Shown here: positions 878 to 63,909 of the stretch, piece by piece
Numbering within the stretch: position 1 is the stretch's first letter
Layout of the letters: each line of letters opens with the position of its first letter
Assembly: GCA_002502095.1 (NCBI GenBank)
Contig: DAPJ01000021.1
Coordinates: 29,069 to 93,068, forward strand
Direction: 5' to 3'
DNA length: 64,000 bases
Origin: Euryarchaeota archaeon UBA62
GTDB taxonomy: Archaea > Thermoplasmatota > Poseidoniia > Poseidoniales > Thalassarchaeaceae
Notes under the pieces: model-generated
Seen by the model: the letters and a program-made list of their open reading frames with translations, nothing else
Told to the model about the DNA's origin: nothing
The model's database searches: none
Translations under genes and position numbers: made by a program

Positions 878-3800
878 ATGGCGGGACGTAGCGCAGCCAC
901 TGCATCATTCATCATCTTGCTAATGTTGCTACCATTGGCTTCCTCGGATATTCAGCCAATAGAGCAAGGAAAAGGAGGCTTAGATGCTGATGGAGTGTGG
1001 ACAGAAAGTGTGGAATCGGAACTACATTCTAACTGGTGGTCCCACTGGAGCAGAGATAAGGATCGCAATTCTTTGGACGATAGACTTGAATGGCTTCTAG
1101 ATCAACCCTCCCAAACCCAACAAGATTGGTGGAAGAGAGCAGAATCGGGAAGTGCCAGAATTTTCATCGATTATGACCACCATCCTTCCGATGCGGATGT
1201 TGAGGAACTGGAGAGCTTAGGGGTCAAAGTCACGTTTCGTCCCAAATATCTCGATACTGTTTCAGCAACTGCTCCGTTCGAAACTATACTTTCTCAAGAT
1301 GGAATCAGGTCTCTCCCCGGAGTAGTAATGATCGAGGATCTCGGTCTGGCAGAACCACACATGAATGAGGCCGTCCCTAACATGGGTGTCGATCAGGTTT
1401 GGACTGACTTCGGCTTTGATGGGACAGGCTCGGTAGTTGCTGTTCTGGATACCGGTGTTAGAGGAGACCATGAGGGCTTGAATGATATGGATGACGAGCC
1501 CTTTACTACAGGTTGTGAGCAACCTGACCCAGACCCCCTAGATCCAAACCCAATTTTTGTTGATTGCGATCCGAAGATTATAGCATTCTATGATGCAGTA
1601 TTAATGGATGCCGAACAAGACCCGTCCACTTCTTACGACTCAGGAACTCATGGGACCCACGTAGCTGGTATTGCGGTAGGTTCTGGAGGGGGACAAACCG
1701 ATCCTACCACTGGACAAAAGTATGTTGGAGCGGCTCCCGGAGCGTTTCTAATTAACATCTTAGCCTGCTGTGATGGAGATATAGAGGACGTTATCCAAGG
1801 GGCCCAGTGGGCCATAGAGAATAAGGACAAGTATGGAATCGACATCGTCACATCATCTCTTGGAGAACAGCAGCTAGAGGTTCACTTCGACAACAACGGC
1901 GACTCAGCTTGGAGTAGGCAGATGGATTCAGTTGTCGAGGCAGGAATCATCACCACTCTCTCAGCTGGTAATGAGTTCGGAGGGGCTACTTTTGCCGGCT
2001 GTAATACCATAGATAGTCCCGGTGATGCTCAACTTCCGGTCACTGTTGCGAGCCTAGATAAGGATCTAGGACTGGCTATTTACAGCAGTCGAGGCTATAC
2101 TTCTGATGGTAGAGTGAAGCCAGATGTTGCAACTATCGGATCCAACATCATGGCTCCCGACGCGGCATCTAGTGATGGATATACTAGCAAGTCAGGAACT
2201 AGTATGGCTACACCACTCATGGCAGGTATCGCCGCATTGATGGTAGAGGCAAATCCGGATATCACCCCTACAGAATTCAAGGATATTATTTCAGCTCATT
2301 CTATCGAGAGAGATTTGCAACTTCTCGATGATCCAGGATTCAATGATTGTAGTATACTAGAGACTCGTCCAGATAACGAGTTTGGATATGGGCAGGCCGA
2401 TCCACTGGCCTTTGTGGAAGCCGCGGGAAGCATTGACAGATCACTAAATGTCAGTATGAATCTCGAGACACTACAAGAAATTGGAAACCAGTCATACGTT
2501 TCAGGAACAGCTTCTGGCGTTGCTCCTGGGATGGGGATTGTAGAGGTCAGAGTAGGTGGCGGAGAATGGAAGGGGGCGGCCGATCTGAAGGGCGATTGGA
2601 GTGAGTGGAGAGTAAAGCTTGACCCTCATATCGAATCTGGAAACTCTACCATTTATGCCAGACTGGTAGTAAGCGAAGATAGTATTTCTCCTGTAGATGC
2701 AAGGAGAATCATTCTAGTCGATGGTGATGCTTCTGAGATAATGTCAGGAGACATGATGCAATTCGGCCTCTCTGTATTCCTGCTCCCGTTTTTGGGTGCG
2801 GTGGCACTAATCGCATTCATTGCTTTTAGGGAACGCTGGGATAAGAAGATAGATCTCTCTAGCAAGGGGTCAGATTTACCATCTAAGTTGATGTCAAGTG
2901 TGGAAGTCATGAATCCGGTTCGCTATTCTGGGTACGTTAAGTCGTCGATCGAAGCTTGGAAGGATGGAAAGTCACTTGCTGAGAATCAGTTCAGAAGGTA
3001 TGTATCACTCTCGATATTATACACGGCTCAGGGACTCCCACAGGGATTCACTTATGTTGCATTCCCTGCTTTCTTGGCTGTTAACGACGTCAGCCCAGTC
3101 GCCATAGCGCAACTTTGGGCCGCGATAGCTCTGCCATGGACATTCAAATTTGTATGGGGCCCGATGGTGGATGGTATCCAAGCCCCGTCCTATGGACGGA
3201 GGAGGCCTTGGATACTATTCGCACAAACGGGGATGGTAGTAACGCTGGGAGCACTACTATTCGTTTCAAATCTAGCTGAATCTATACAATTAGTTACGCT
3301 GATGCTGTTCATTCACAATCTATTCTCATCATTGCAAGACGTAGGTGTCGATGCACTAGCAGTAGATGTACTGCAACCGGATGAAGTCGCCAAGGCAAAC
3401 GGATTCATGTTTGCAGCTAAGAGGGCTGGATATATCTTGGGTGGAGCGATTCTGGGTATAATGGCCACTAAGTTTGGAATCAAATCGGCTATAGTAATTC
3501 AACTACCATTGTTGGTAATAATCATGGCTCTTCCATTGTTCTTGAGGGAAAGGCCAGGGGACAAGCTCTTCCCCTGGAGTGCCGCCAGAAGCTCCAGTCT
3601 TTGGGATACTAAAGAACAGGAGCCAGAGGACGTAGATGATGAAAGTTCAGATTCCTCCGAGTTAGAAGTTCCATGGACAGAGAATGAGGAAGATGATCCT
3701 TACAGGGCAGCTCATTGGACTGCTAAGAATCTAGTTTCCAAGAATATCTCCCTATCTGCAGCTGTTCTTTGGGTGTCTATTTCCCTAATTCTTCTGGCTA

Positions 3801-4693
3801 TGGTAGTTTACATCGGAGGGGTACTGGTTGAGGAAGACTGGCGAGATCGTCCTATTTTATTCATGGATATAGTTGATTTTGGAGTAGTTTCTATATCCCT
3901 AGTAATTCTTTTACAGCTATTCCAGAAACTAGGAATCAGACTTCCTAAAGTACCAAATCCGTTTGCCCGATTATTGATGGGCCCCGCAGTTACATCATAC
4001 AATATTGTGAAGGGATTCTCCCTAAGATCCTCATTCCTACTAATCTTCCTATGCCTCCTCTCGGAATTGTATCTTTTCGTCGACCCTATTATACTGGATA
4101 TTTTCATCAATGAGGCTGGGTGGGAGATGGACAAATACAGCGCTGTAATGGGAGGGGTAGTGATAGCTTTCCTCATGGCAGGGCAACTGATAGGTGGATT
4201 CCTGGGTGATCGATTCGGCGTTAGGGAGGTGGCCATGATTGGGTTCACCCTATTGGCCCTGGCTAATGCAGGACTCGCTCTGTTGCAGGGATACTGGGAA
4301 AATACAACTATCATGGTCGCCTACCTATGTCTAAGGGCAATAATCAACGGATTGGCTTGGATTTCTATAATATCTGTATCTATGCGATTAACCTATAGTA
4401 AGGCAGGAGGGACCCAATTCACGGCATACATGTCCATGTTCAATCTTTCAGGTGTCATCGCACTAAGTCTGACAGGCAAGGCGATCGAAATCATGGATTA
4501 TATCTCAGCATTGTATCTAGGAGCGGCGCTCACGCTAATGACAGTGATATTCCTAGTCTTCATTGATCCAGATGAATGTGATAGGGTTTTGGAAGGGAGA
4601 CTAGATGATGAAGATGAGAATTATGGAGGGGACTTAGGAGAATCGTCTGAGGTATGGTGGGAGGAAGGCGAACCGGATGTCGTCTCTGCTTGA
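878..4693 (+). CDS. Fusion protein: secreted subtilisin-like S8 serine protease, TM anchor, AmpG-family (PAT family) MFS permease
   Basis: N-terminal signal-like segment (FIILLMLLPLASSD). S8 catalytic triad motifs VAVLDTGV, HGTHVAG, SGTSMATPLMAG. TM helix FGLSVFLLPFLGAVALIAFIAF. AmpG-like signatures follow: LYTAQGLPQGF, LPWTFKFVWGPMVDG..YGRRRPWIL, SSLQDVGVDALAVDVL. Multiple further TM helices run to the C-terminus. One uninterrupted 1271-codon ORF. Confidence 0.8.
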   Translation: MAGRSAATASFIILLMLLPLASSDIQPIEQGKGGLDADGVWTESVESELHSNWWSHWSRDKDRNSLDDRLEWLLDQPSQTQQDWWKRAESGSARIFIDYDHHPSDADVEELESLGVKVTFRPKYLDTVSATAPFETILSQDGIRSLPGVVMIEDLGLAEPHMNEAVPNMGVDQVWTDFGFDGTGSVVAVLDTGVRGDHEGLNDMDDEPFTTGCEQPDPDPLDPNPIFVDCDPKIIAFYDAVLMDAEQDPSTSYDSGTHGTHVAGIAVGSGGGQTDPTTGQKYVGAAPGAFLINILACCDGDIEDVIQGAQWAIENKDKYGIDIVTSSLGEQQLEVHFDNNGDSAWSRQMDSVVEAGIITTLSAGNEFGGATFAGCNTIDSPGDAQLPVTVASLDKDLGLAIYSSRGYTSDGRVKPDVATIGSNIMAPDAASSDGYTSKSGTSMATPLMAGIAALMVEANPDITPTEFKDIISAHSIERDLQLLDDPGFNDCSILETRPDNEFGYGQADPLAFVEAAGSIDRSLNVSMNLETLQEIGNQSYVSGTASGVAPGMGIVEVRVGGGEWKGAADLKGDWSEWRVKLDPHIESGNSTIYARLVVSEDSISPVDARRIILVDGDASEIMSGDMMQFGLSVFLLPFLGAVALIAFIAFRERWDKKIDLSSKGSDLPSKLMSSVEVMNPVRYSGYVKSSIEAWKDGKSLAENQFRRYVSLSILYTAQGLPQGFTYVAFPAFLAVNDVSPVAIAQLWAAIALPWTFKFVWGPMVDGIQAPSYGRRRPWILFAQTGMVVTLGALLFVSNLAESIQLVTLMLFIHNLFSSLQDVGVDALAVDVLQPDEVAKANGFMFAAKRAGYILGGAILGIMATKFGIKSAIVIQLPLLVIIMALPLFLRERPGDKLFPWSAARSSSLWDTKEQEPEDVDDESSDSSELEVPWTENEEDDPYRAAHWTAKNLVSKNISLSAAVLWVSISLILLAMVVYIGGVLVEEDWRDRPILFMDIVDFGVVSISLVILLQLFQKLGIRLPKVPNPFARLLMGPAVTSYNIVKGFSLRSSFLLIFLCLLSELYLFVDPIILDIFINEAGWEMDKYSAVMGGVVIAFLMAGQLIGGFLGDRFGVREVAMIGFTLLALANAGLALLQGYWENTTIMVAYLCLRAIINGLAWISIISVSMRLTYSKAGGTQFTAYMSMFNLSGVIALSLTGKAIEIMDYISALYLGAALTLMTVIFLVFIDPDECDRVLEGRLDDEDENYGGDLGESSEVWWEEGEPDVVSA

Positions 4694-4943
4694 ACACCTT
4701 AGGTCCGCAGATACGGACTTTCTATTCTTCAGTCAAACAATTTGTCCATACTGTACTAGGGCCGCCCGAACCCTGGAAGCTAACAATCTAACATATACCG
4801 AGATTAATTTGGATCACTATGAGGGCCTTAGACAGAAGATCATCATCGAGACGGGCCATAGAACAGTTCCTGTGGTTTTTGACTTGAGGCAGGATTCGCC
4901 GATATTTGTCGGGGGATCCGATCATCTGATTGACTATCTTTGA
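4677..4943 (+). CDS. Glutaredoxin-like protein (CPYC active site)
   Basis: 88 aa. CPYC motif early in the protein, then TVPVVF and GGSDHL, the classical glutaredoxin layout. Start overlaps the end of the upstream fusion gene. Confidence 0.75.
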   Translation: MSSLLEHLRSADTDFLFFSQTICPYCTRAARTLEANNLTYTEINLDHYEGLRQKIIIETGHRTVPVVFDLRQDSPIFVGGSDHLIDYL

Positions 4944-5532: not shown

Positions 5533-6501
5533 TCACAGATTCCATTGGAAAACCAATGCTCCGGCAACCTTGAGGTGGATGTATGAAGATTGGCCACGAA
5601 CCGTTACAGTAAGCGAGTATTCTCCAGAGTTGGAGGGTATAGTGCCTATGGCACCCTTTTCTGTCGCTCCTGACCCCCATGCACGAGTAAGGGGAGAAGC
5701 TCCAGCATGATCCTTCATTGTTAGGGAACCGGAAGATGCCCCATTAGATGCAATTTCTACATCAAGATACCAAACTAAGGTATCCCAATCTCCTTCTGTT
5801 GGGTGCCCATCGTCGAAAAATGAGTCATATATTTCCTGGTCATTCTCCTCATACAGCCGATCAATCAAGTCTCTAGCTCTATAGAAGAAAACGTCTCCTT
5901 GATAGTTTGATCTGGCGACATTCAAATCCATACGTAACTGGTTCCTTCCCTCCGAGTCTTCCCAAACTAGCCTTTCTAGGAAACCATCACTTCCGCTGAA
6001 TGTATATTGCAATTCATGACCTTCAGAAGATTCAGCACTTACTCTGGCATTTCCATTGTTTATGGAAACAGTAGTAGCACTCCACTCTTGGCCGAATAGC
6101 GTGAATGACCACTCATCACCGATGACCCATGGAAATGAGAATACTTGTTGTGGTATCCCATTTTCGTATACTGACAATCCATCAATTGTCATTCGGCCCA
6201 GAAATGGATTATGGTTGATTACCGCGTGTCTTTGAGCTTCTCTCTCAGAGGAAATACCGACTTGATAATCTCCTGATTCGTTATCAATTTCTGCTACAAC
6301 CAACCTAGCGCTATCTTCTCCGAATTGTGGTGTGATGAATGTGTACAGCCAATTATTTCCAACTTCCCATTCTGGGAGAATCATATCATCATCCACAGAT
6401 TCTCCCGATTGCACAGAATCGCCTGTCTCAATGCAACCCGAGACAATACATATCGTCATCAAACAGGCCATACCAATTGCAGACCTGCCACTCATGCCCA
6501 T
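5533..6501 (-). CDS. Hypothetical secreted lipoprotein
   Basis: N-terminal hydrophobic segment ending in a lipobox-like VSGC. No recognised catalytic motif. Lies 8 nt upstream of the esterase on the same strand. Confidence 0.45.
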   Translation of the reverse strand: MGMSGRSAIGMACLMTICIVSGCIETGDSVQSGESVDDDMILPEWEVGNNWLYTFITPQFGEDSARLVVAEIDNESGDYQVGISSEREAQRHAVINHNPFLGRMTIDGLSVYENGIPQQVFSFPWVIGDEWSFTLFGQEWSATTVSINNGNARVSAESSEGHELQYTFSGSDGFLERLVWEDSEGRNQLRMDLNVARSNYQGDVFFYRARDLIDRLYEENDQEIYDSFFDDGHPTEGDWDTLVWYLDVEIASNGASSGSLTMKDHAGASPLTRAWGSGATEKGAIGTIPSNSGEYSLTVTVRGQSSYIHLKVAGALVFQWNL

Positions 6502-63822: not shown

Positions 63823-63909
63823 TGGCGCGGCAGGGGAGATTCGAACTCCCGAGGTGAAACACCACTGGATTAGCAATCCAGCGCAATGGCCAGGCTATGC
63901 GACTGCCGC
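63823..63909 (-). tRNA. tRNA-Ser (anticodon GCU), class II with long variable arm, CCA encoded
   Basis: Folded by hand. Acceptor GCGGCAG/CTGCCGC (7 bp). D-arm GCA..TGC with a GG-containing loop. Anticodon stem CTGGA/TCCAG with loop TTGCTAA. Variable arm GGTG-TTT-CACC. T-arm GGGAG-TTCGAAT-CTCCC. Discriminator G, terminal CCA. Confidence 0.9.

Follow-up and report, generated by a model that had tools for sequence, protein, structure and literature searches.

In Bacteroidota, Sus-like utilisomes and the RagAB peptide importer hold surface hydrolysis and uptake together, so that the products are not lost, and ABC bacteriocin exporters that carry a C39 peptidase domain at the N-terminus unite protease and transporter in one chain. 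A precedent for coupling between an enzyme and a permease of the AmpG type is provided by A. baumannii AmpG1, which binds the lytic transglycosylase Slt, and for which coupling of cleavage to import has been proposed with experimental support (PMC13507758). In addition, an internal insertion equivalent to TM13/14 is known in the AmpG proteins of P. aeruginosa and A. baumannii, and roles have been reported for individual AmpG residues, including Tyr152 and Lys132, which are needed for disaccharide binding (PMC11568325). In surface seawater, the uncultured Marine Group II reportedly ranks with the most abundant archaea, and evidence from genomes, transcripts and labelling experiments suggests that its members feed on protein and peptides (PMC6461757, PMC9723583). 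The Poseidoniales have been portrayed as proteolytic archaea that rely on amino acids from outside the cell (PMC6461757), with extracellular S8 proteases in all MGII MAGs (PMC6864105) and a subtilase among the highly transcribed genes (PMC9723583).

Our analysis of a window of 64,000 nucleotides from Euryarchaeota archaeon UBA62 identified a gene that brings a protease and a permease together in a single ORF (positions 878..4693 of the window, plus strand, as are all the features below). Based on ORF calling, profile matches and relatives, this ORF encodes an S8 subtilase - TM0 - PAT/AmpG-like MFS fusion, in the order: signal-like N-terminus, pro-region, S8 subtilase, beta domain, TM0, cytoplasmic linker, and 14-helix MFS permease. 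As the original prediction held, it is uninterrupted, with an ATG start, 1271 codons plus stop and zero internal stops. The GC content across the region is 0.44-0.50 and the composition is unremarkable. The neighboring genes have housekeeping functions (DHBP synthase, GHMP kinase, glutaredoxin, H+-PPase, and GATase). The glutaredoxin-like gene (CPYC; 4677..4943) overlaps the end of the fusion ORF by 17 nt, and is the same-strand downstream neighbor at 70 of the 80 related loci described below.

The N-terminus (residues 1-23; 878..946) consists of MAGR, a hydrophobic core and PLASS, with R4, P19, and S23 invariant. By hydropathy, its sequence (MAGRSAATASFIILLMLLPLASS) has a positively charged n-region followed by the hydrophobic core, consistent with the signal-like N-terminus proposed earlier. 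The following segment (residues about 24-170; 947..1387) was delimited by conservation (WW..WSRDKD..LDDRLEWL) and modeled secondary structure, and includes a beta-alpha-beta-beta unit at residues 92-133 (pLDDT 70-83) that resembles a subtilase propeptide. Since a Pfam scan gave no I9 propeptide match in this segment, its assignment as the subtilase pro-region is inferred. The Peptidase_S8 catalytic domain (residues 182-505; 1421..2392) was defined by the Pfam profile, conservation, and alignment with Tk-SP of Thermococcus kodakarensis (PDB 3afg), the closest solved S8 structure (E 1e-36). The match to PF00082 covers profile positions 1-288 of 288 (144.2 bits vs. a cutoff of 21.8; 6.5e-42). D191 (DTG; 1448-1450), H258 (HGTH; 1649-1651), the oxyanion N365 (AGNE; 1970-1972), and S442 (GTSMA; 2201-2203) align with their Tk-SP counterparts and are invariant across 20 and across 34 homologues; the orthologue from Marine Group III retains them too. 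The complete S8 catalytic triad of the original prediction is thus confirmed in its Asp-His-Ser order, together with the oxyanion Asn, and, judged by its residues, the S8 domain is catalytically intact. After the S8 core, modeled strands, conservation and the Tk-SP match delineate a conserved beta-rich domain (residues about 520-613; 2435..2716), followed by a predicted extracellular tether (residues 614-631; 2717..2770) whose sequence varies among homologues. Identity in the homologue comparison is 37-68% over residues 601-700.

The ectodomain is followed by the anchor helix TM0 (residues 632-651; 2771..2830), recognized by hydropathy and conservation, modeled with pLDDT >90, and carrying the motif vF..PF, in which F634, P637, and F638 are invariant. 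Sequence and topology then place a cytoplasmic linker of 52 residues (652-703; 2831..2986), which begins with RERWDKK directly after TM0 and varies in sequence and length among homologues. K+R residues number 26 in the predicted cytoplasmic loops vs. 2 in the short external loops, a distribution that supports the arrangement anticipated in the original prediction (protease outside, one TM, and an N-in MFS). On this basis TM0 is predicted to be oriented N-out/C-in, with the ectodomain on the outer face of the membrane. The full-length AlphaFold model is too poor to be read for protease-permease geometry.

Alignment to AmpG and the structure model define the MFS N-bundle (TM1-TM6, residues 704-887; 2987..3538) and C-bundle (TM7-TM12, residues 1050-1228; 4025..4561). 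The N-bundle harbors an AmpG-type extended motif A (residues 756-778; 3143-3211) with K757, W760, P762, D765, R775, R776, and W778, corresponding to AmpG K62, W65, P67, D70, R80, R81, and W83, and the TM4 acidic residues D821, D825, and D830, corresponding to AmpG D125, D129, and D134. Accordingly, the motifs cited in the original prediction (FKFVWGPMVDG..GRRRPWIL, residues 756-780, and SSLQDVGVDA, residues 817-826) are present and align with AmpG motif A and TM4. The acidic insertion noted at about 3590-3720 is also real, and corresponds by sequence and structure model to a predicted-disordered cytoplasmic loop (residues 888-942; 3539..3703), the acidic segment having 18 D+E in a 71-residue loop. 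Structure models further show two additional helices (residues 959-984 and 992-1017; 3752..3928) that form a hairpin between the N- and C-bundles. This hairpin corresponds to the TM13/14-equivalent insertion that lies internally in the AmpG proteins of P. aeruginosa and A. baumannii, and the permease, like AmpG, has 14 helices. Topology assigns residues 1229-1271 (4562..4690) to an acidic cytoplasmic C-terminal tail.

AmpG (E. coli; PDB 9c3f, 8zgz, 9j9z, and 8zbb; PAT, TIGR00901) is the best match of the permease by sequence and fold, ranking top in the PDB sequence search (E about 1e-10), Foldseek (E 1e-13 to 2e-9) and NCBIfam, which agrees with the AmpG/PAT likeness first proposed. The AF2 model of the permease (pLDDT 80, pTM 0.80) shows 12 core helices, with D765...R775 R776 of motif A between TM2 and TM3. 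MFS_1 (PF07690) matches residues 712-1060 and a second stretch (90.5 bits vs. a cutoff of 33.4; 1.3e-25), and the BT1 and Acatn Pfam matches cover the MFS N-domain. Acatn (PF13000) exceeds its cutoff (39.5 vs. 23.7 bits), yet its match is limited to profile positions 5-170 of 546, the shared N-domain. The permease falls below the NCBIfam cutoffs of the AmpG family model TIGR00901 (116.7 vs. 350 bits), of the AmpG equivalogs NF008238 (57.3 vs. 756 bits) and NF008867 (66.5 vs. 656 bits), and of RhtX/FptX (TIGR02718; 102 vs. 356 bits), the second-best NCBIfam match. The paralogues and nearest stand-alone relatives that were tested score likewise low against the AmpG model (97-144 bits). The Pfam scan at E<=0.1 gave no PTR2 match (POT/PTR, PF00854), and in Foldseek the PepT structures are generic MFS fold matches ranked below AmpG. 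At the residue level, AmpG Tyr152 is replaced by Lys848 and Lys132 by Ala828, both replacements being invariant, while Tyr59 corresponds to Trp754 and Ser123 to Leu. AmpG Lys235/Asp238/Glu326 correspond to E1063/L1066/R1153, with charges reversed, although this C-domain mapping is less certain because the C-domain alignment is low-scoring. Taken together, these comparisons place the permease in a PAT-family clade whose nearest characterized relative is AmpG, although it does not appear to be a bona fide AmpG. The idea of muropeptide-like products, suggested in the original prediction, is weakened by both the family score and the replaced residues.

We retrieved 80 related loci from species-level genomes, including 68 complete loci and another 11 running off the contig. 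The 68 complete loci each contain one intact ORF of 1230-1308 codons in conserved synteny, span 57-100% identity, and never have the fusion split, and none of the 80 loci has an ORF break at the protease-permease junction. The continuity in other assemblies and the recurrence of the architecture in related genomes that were sought on the original prediction are therefore both borne out: a relative is encoded by 136 species-level genomes, and relatives range in identity from 98% to 46%, the latter for the orthologue of Marine Group III. Hundreds of clusters (from ENA, JGI, NCBI, Tara, and Logan) share this architecture, as do SAGs and a PacBio MAG. The fusion is genuine and not an assembly artefact. 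In Poseidoniales the gene belongs to the core set and has been inherited vertically, and it occurs in Marine Group III as well. Purifying selection acts on both halves, with the S8 catalytic residues, motif A, K757, D821, and D825 invariant. The S8 and MFS halves also recombine independently between lineages, generating mosaic alleles with breakpoints near the junction. We found no paper describing this protease-permease architecture in the searchable literature, in keeping with the earlier statement that no described example was known, although JGI automatic annotation already names a 'subtilisin family serine protease/MFS family permease'.

The TM0-permease chassis of Poseidoniales is not restricted to the S8 subtilase, as it also bears an M28 aminopeptidase (P0130), a halocyanin-like blue-copper domain (P0132), and two unknown domains, one of them Cys-rich (DUF-fused families P0125/P0126/P0131). 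These paralogues share with the S8 fusion a homologous TM0 (vFF.PF/W), the permease clade, and the order signal peptide-ectodomain-TM0-MFS, and differ from it in the ectodomain. All ectodomain-fused classes retain K757, W760, P762, D765, R775, R776, W778, D821, and D825. Permease clade A comprises the S8-fused and some DUF-fused cores, clade B the M28- and Cu-fused cores, and one DUF is found on both clades. The mean identity between M28 and Cu permease cores is 65% vs. 66% among M28 cores (their consensus cores are 0.83/0.82 identical), and since the two types are as alike as M28 cores are among themselves, permease specificity does not follow ectodomain chemistry. The M28 peptidase is ligand-intact and was fused independently to the homologous chassis. 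Finally, there is an S8 paralogue with the anchor alone and no permease, and the one S8-only look-alike (P0122) maps to another locus, without an adjacent MFS.

We propose that proteolysis and uptake may be coupled as follows. A Sec-type signal and the pro-region would place the S8 subtilase and beta domain on the external side of the membrane, and the short variable tether, TM0, and the cytoplasmic linker join this ectodomain to a 14-helix, putatively proton-coupled MFS permease. The S8 domain would cleave proteins at the cell surface, no more than a few nanometres from the cavity that opens outward in its own permease, which would import the cleavage product, most likely oligopeptides rather than muropeptides, driven through the conserved K757/D821/D825/D765 proton-coupling machinery. 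This would limit the diffusive loss of hydrolysate for a free-living, planktonic, single-membrane cell, and would amount to a one-polypeptide form of 'selfish' uptake. In support of such coupling, the permease models retain the hairpin that gives the AmpG vestibule space for large peptide-bearing substrates. The M28 fusion to the same chassis counts in its favor as a second peptidase family, whereas the blue-copper domain on a near-identical core and the anchor-only S8 paralogue count against it. The same anchor-only paralogue also implies that 14 extra helices with intact transport motifs would be needless for mere anchoring. We know of no characterized PAT member that transports plain peptides. 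With evidence pulling both ways, including the other ectodomains, the cores that do not track them and the anchor-only S8, coupling in one polypeptide is plausible and unproven, and we rate its chance as somewhat less than even; as a whole, a single-chain surface protease plus product-importing permease is, tentatively, the best explanation. A broader and more doubtful version is that Poseidoniia possess a modular ectodomain-TM0-permease system, in which a proton-coupled AmpG-like importer is fused to exchangeable surface modules with one-to-one coupling, forming an archaeal counterpart, in one protein and one membrane, of the bacterial machines for selfish uptake, and a main route of protein consumption in these abundant ocean archaea. 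Under this reading the S8 endopeptidase is possibly the ancestral partner, the others being the M28 aminopeptidase, the blue-copper domain, and the unknown domain.

A serious rival to coupling, although itself somewhat less likely, is that the TM0-PAT chassis acts as a generic platform for shuffled ectodomains, with a transport job unrelated to S8 products and a fusion that anchors, positions or co-expresses the protease. The variety of ectodomains on one chassis, the two permease clades that do not match ectodomain type (with the same DUF on both), and the mosaic alleles breaking near the junction are all in line with this role. Nevertheless, a single helix suffices for anchoring in the anchor-only paralogue, peptidases make up two of the three ectodomains that can be identified, and the fusion is unsplit at every complete locus across 57-100% identity, although the variable linker could easily gain a stop and a start. 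Coupling could also run outward. The permease might then export a precursor peptide for the S8 domain to mature, in the manner of LanP-type subtilases, or else supply the ectodomain with a cofactor or a metal chelate. S8, M28, and cupredoxin families are metal-binding modules, the PAT relative SLC33A1, which was matched in the PDB sequence search, moves its substrate out of the cytosol, and the RhtX/FptX metallophore permease, second-best as an NCBIfam model, nearly ties AmpG for the Cu-fused paralogue (118 vs. 122 bits). We consider export improbable, as the characterized near relatives (AmpG, RhtX/FptX, and BT1) are importers, the housekeeping neighbors include no precursor-peptide or modification genes, and Ca2+ for the subtilase is plentiful in seawater.

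A true AmpG-like function, in which peptidoglycan fragments from bacterial debris are imported and the S8 domain trims attached peptides or proteins, is less probable still. AmpG is the closest characterized relative by sequence and fold, the equivalents of K62, D125, and D129 are conserved, and the hairpin that forms the vestibule in AmpG is present; against this, the TIGR00901 score is far below its cutoff, the Lys848 and Ala828 replacements remove reported disaccharide-binding residues (PMC11568325), and the C-domain cluster proposed as a stem-peptide sensor is charge-reversed (E1063, R1153). Moreover, the host is an archaeon, in which murein recycling is not expected, and an S8 endopeptidase is neither a muramidase nor an amidase. 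Hardly credible is an artefact, whether a merger of two neighboring genes through faulty sequencing or assembly, or one ORF that always yields two products via an internal start. We found nothing in its favor. The linker of this ORF does contain Met codons; none of these is conserved among homologues, indicating that there is no conserved internal start, and the S8-only look-alike sits elsewhere with no MFS alongside. The assembly-error form is effectively refuted by the many independent assemblies and the intact ORF at 68/68 complete loci.

A core, syntenic, and strictly conserved ectoprotease-permease gene offers a concrete test protein for the capture of extracellular proteolysis products, and its paralogues reveal an archaeal family of AmpG-like permeases with swapped ectodomains. 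If coupling is true, the fusion would represent a compact covalent protease-importer design, of which we found no description in the searchable literature, and would matter for how dissolved organic nitrogen turnover is modeled. If coupling is false, the family still shows an unusual anchoring of surface proteins to a polytopic transporter.

Tk-SP likewise has a C-terminal domain after its S8 core, but it is a soluble secreted enzyme, whereas the protein described here is tethered to a polytopic transporter and contains, between Asp and His, an insertion that is conserved. Relative to AmpG, the fusion gains an N-terminal helix (TM0) and an ectodomain of 600 residues, and its host is an archaeon. 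C39-ABC exporters differ in having a cytoplasmic peptidase and in coupling maturation to secretion through an ABC exporter, and the Sus-like and RagAB systems are multi-protein, TonB-dependent outer-membrane complexes, as opposed to one inner-membrane MFS polypeptide. A. baumannii AmpG1 is likewise a permease physically linked, through its periplasmic domain, to a substrate-producing hydrolase (PMC13507758). There, the link is non-covalent, via a docking domain, and the partner is a glycan-cleaving transglycosylase; in the fusion, the enzyme is a serine endopeptidase that forms part of the same polypeptide as the permease.

The ORF at 878-4693 (+) of the window is a single reading frame of 1271 codons whose composition matches that of its surroundings, and the original prediction was that it fuses a secreted S8 subtilase to an AmpG-family permease. 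Behind the signal-like N-terminus, which is present where it had been placed, lies a full-length Peptidase_S8 match (Pfam; residues 182-505, 6.5e-42). Alignment to Tk-SP (3afg, E 1e-36), the closest solved subtilase, pairs Asp191, His258, Asn365 and Ser442 with its catalytic residues, and none of the four varies across alignments of 20 and 34 homologues, bearing out the complete catalytic triad. The C-terminal half is covered by an MFS_1 match, with BT1 and Acatn matches on its N-bundle (Pfam). Scans against Rfam and for tRNAs detected no RNA genes in or near the fusion gene; the sole RNA gene of the 64-kb window is a tRNA-Ser (GCT) at 63823-63909 (-) (Rfam, ARAGORN).

The S8-permease fusion is real. 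A protein search returned 892 relatives, and each of the best 120 of these, which come from ENA, JGI, NCBI, Tara and Logan assemblies, contains both domains, with a length of 945-1317 aa (nearly all 1255-1317) and an identity to the window protein ranging from 98% down to 63%; some carry the JGI label 'subtilisin family serine protease/MFS family permease'. The architecture recurs in related genomes, a relative being encoded in 136 species-representative genomes. We fetched 80 loci, including single-cell genomes and one PacBio MAG, all from Poseidoniales and, where a family is named, from Thalassarchaeaceae. The ORF is uninterrupted over 1230-1308 codons in 68 of the 80 and leaves the contig end in 11, and the junction is interrupted in none, as expected if a single gene encodes both halves. 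At one locus (L008:28-3570), a single in-frame stop about six codons past the match start lies at the contig edge, within the pro-region and not at the junction, and is probably an end-of-contig error. An orthologue in Marine Group III is 46% identical and has intact motifs. In addition, relatives differ in both the sequence and the length of the cytoplasmic linker, and none of its Met codons is conserved, which argues against a conserved internal start. That the fusion is an artefact and not a true single gene is therefore scarcely credible. One locus (L064, NZWI01000049.1), labelled Candidatus Neomarinimicrobiota bacterium, has the fusion next to DHBP synthase in the archaeal arrangement; the contig probably comes from Poseidoniales and was placed in a bacterial MAG by binning.

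A protein of 672 residues, P0122, was considered as a split-gene case refuting the fusion and was rejected, as it is a paralogue at another locus without an adjacent MFS gene. It consists of a signal peptide, pro-region, S8 domain, beta domain and anchor helix (TM0), ends five residues past the anchor, and shares 68% identity with residues 1-656 of the window protein. P0122 was found on nine marine contigs (among its loci L083:1649-3667, L084:1437-3455 and L085:1406-3424), at a locus distinct from that of the fusion, where its neighbours are SnoaL_2, GtrA and MICAH genes and no MFS gene lies beside it.

An AlphaFold model covering residues 600-1240 and based on a diverse alignment (mean pLDDT 80, pTM 0.80) places TM0 at residues 632-651 (pLDDT >90) and TM1-6 at 704-887, with short cytoplasmic helices in the linker between them. 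These are followed by an acidic loop predicted to be disordered (888-942), a hairpin of two helices (959-984 and 992-1017) and TM7-12 (1050-1228). The anchor helix, the cytoplasmic linker and the acidic loop are all found where the original prediction had them. With the ectodomain taken as outside, 26 Lys and Arg residues fall in predicted cytoplasmic segments versus 2 in short external loops, which together with the model supports the proposed topology of an external protease, one anchor helix and a permease with its N-terminus inside. The external loops of the permease have at most 7 residues each, and the tether between protease and TM0 is variable and only about 18 residues long, so that the protease must lie near the outward face. 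The protease-permease geometry is not readable from a model of residues 36-1235 (mean pLDDT 52), whose S8 core is too poor (about 23).

By both sequence and fold, the permease is nearest to AmpG. The AmpG family is the first-ranked NCBIfam model (116.7 bits, against a cutoff of 350 bits), followed by RhtX/FptX (102 bits); AmpG structures top the PDB sequence search, with SLC33A1 next, and provide the top four Foldseek matches for both models. The AmpG-like motifs that suggested this kinship are present at their noted position. AmpG residues from the E. coli cryo-EM study (PMC11568325) were mapped through the PDB alignment and checked for conservation. The AmpG-specific extended motif A (Lys62, Trp65, Pro67, Asp70, Arg80, Arg81 and Trp83, AmpG numbering) and Asp125, Asp129 and Asp134 of TM4 are kept in all relatives, whereas the disaccharide-binding Tyr152, Lys132 and Ser123 correspond to Lys848, Ala828 and Leu819, and the C-domain cluster Lys235/Asp238/Glu326, where the mapping is less certain, to Glu1063, Leu1066 and Arg1153. 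The hairpin occupies an internal position, as in the AmpG proteins of P. aeruginosa and A. baumannii (PMC11568325). On the AmpG model, the closest stand-alone relatives and every paralogue tested likewise reach only 97-144 bits. Since AmpG is the best match and motif A and TM4 are kept, yet the binding residues are replaced and the cutoff is missed, we place the permease in an uncharacterised PAT-like clade. Judged from its residues, it appears to have the AmpG transport engine with a different binding site and should not be filed as AmpG; the predicted AmpG assignment thus stands as kinship and not as family membership.

The fusion gene sits in a conserved neighbourhood, which indicates a vertically inherited core gene. 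This comprises DHBP synthase and at some loci a GHMP kinase, then the fusion and a glutaredoxin-like gene, then at some loci an esterase, and lastly genes for a secreted unknown protein, an H+-pyrophosphatase and a GATase. The glutaredoxin-like gene (CPYC; window 4677-4943, +) directly follows the fusion on the same strand in 70 of the 80 loci, and in this lineage it begins within the fusion ORF, the two sharing 17 nt. A role in lanthipeptide or bacteriocin maturation was considered and found no support in the neighbourhood. The fusion alleles are mosaic: P0030 matches the window protein at 96-100% identity in residues 1-500 and at 74-80% in the permease, and P0028 has the reverse pattern (alignment A1). 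At two loci (L009 and L038) the fusion gene is 78% and 74% identical, with neighbours up to 97-98%. Together, these sequence patterns suggest recombination with breakpoints near the junction. For the secreted protein encoded beside the locus at 5533-6501 (-), identity in related genomes is bimodal, at either about 42-47% or 91-100%, whereas that of its neighbours varies smoothly, a pattern resembling that of a surface protein with two allelic types.

An exhaustive search over 1.84 billion representatives revealed that the same permease clade bears other ectodomains, each with a homologous anchor helix (vFF.PF/W motif, then basic residues). One family (P0130; about 57 clusters, annotated Euryarchaeota or Thermoplasmatota) carries an M28 aminopeptidase with invariant canonical metal ligands, and a divergent M28-fused version occurs in Thalassarchaeaceae. 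Another (P0132; at least 120 clusters, named Candidatus Poseidoniaceae) carries a halocyanin-like blue-copper domain with type-1 copper ligands. Among the paralogues whose ectodomain belongs to no recognised family (DUF-fused), P0125, P0126, P0131 and P0428 share a Cys-rich domain of about 200 residues, which has no match in PDB or Pfam. These fusions of an ectodomain, TM0 and a PAT permease, P0133 also among them, are encoded outside the window, by Poseidoniales and related marine archaea. Two proteins of about 890 aa, P0412 and P0414 ('M28 family peptidase [Candidatus Thalassarchaeaceae archaeon]'), have multi-helix C-terminal halves that keep the motif-A-like PVDRMQTLPWGRRRSW and have lost the MFS_1 match; the proteins resemble an M28 ectodomain followed by a permease that has diverged strongly. 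In P0151 and P0257, from the same permease clade and encoded outside the window, the extra domains are C-terminal and not N-terminal (a 3-keto-disaccharide hydrolase-like domain and FG-GAP repeats, respectively).

A strict search for class-specific permease positions gave almost none, and its relaxed version exposed two clades of permease cores that do not follow the ectodomain: one with the S8-fused and some DUF-fused cores, the other with the M28-fused, copper-fused and other DUF-fused cores. M28 and copper cores have a mean identity of 65%, versus 66% for M28 cores among themselves. In a rough neighbour-joining tree, which carries no support values, all N-terminally fused forms are monophyletic relative to stand-alone relatives, and the first to branch off is the S8 fusion of Marine Group III.

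The architecture and orientation of the protein are established, as are the conservation of both active centres and the persistence of the covalent link. The reading that we tentatively consider the most likely is that one protein combines surface proteolysis with import of a product: the tethered protease would cleave proteins at the cell surface, and the permease would take up the cleavage product, probably oligopeptides, by proton symport. This is favoured by P0122, in which TM0 alone suffices for anchoring, while the 14-helix permease and the link are kept in the fusion without a single split; by the joining of a second, unrelated peptidase (M28) to the same TM0-permease chassis; and by the large cavity and vestibule of AmpG-type permeases, which suit bulky peptide-bearing substrates. 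The lifestyle of the hosts points the same way: Poseidoniales are described as proteolytic organisms that rely on amino acids from outside the cell, and S8 enzymes are reported throughout the group and are transcribed (PMC6461757, PMC6864105, PMC9723583); the subtilases listed in the metatranscriptome supplement of PMC9723583 include none attributable to the fusion gene. A recent precedent, in which the hydrolase that produces the substrate of an AmpG homologue is recruited by that permease (PMC13507758), also favours coupled cleavage and import.

A serious rival, possible although we consider it the less probable, is that the permease is a shared chassis for swapped ectodomains. A blue-copper domain is borne by a nearly identical permease, ectodomain type is decoupled from permease lineage and, to our knowledge, no characterised PAT transporter carries plain peptides; all three count for the chassis reading and against cleavage coupled to import, and the retained link and the M28 fusion weigh on the other side. 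Less likely than both are export or cofactor supply by the permease, which we regard as improbable, and true muropeptide scavenging by an AmpG-like importer, which seems more doubtful still.

Both halves of the protein are members of well-known superfamilies. We found no description of the S8-TM0-AmpG-like fusion in the searchable literature, and automatic annotations record the domain pair; what is new is that a major ocean lineage has this covalent architecture in a core gene, together with a surrounding family with swapped ectodomains. Coupling of a hydrolase to an importer is itself familiar from Sus-like utilisomes. It is also known from the AmpG1-Slt pair (PMC13507758), in which the hydrolase is recruited to the permease, whereas in the window protein the protease is covalently joined to it.
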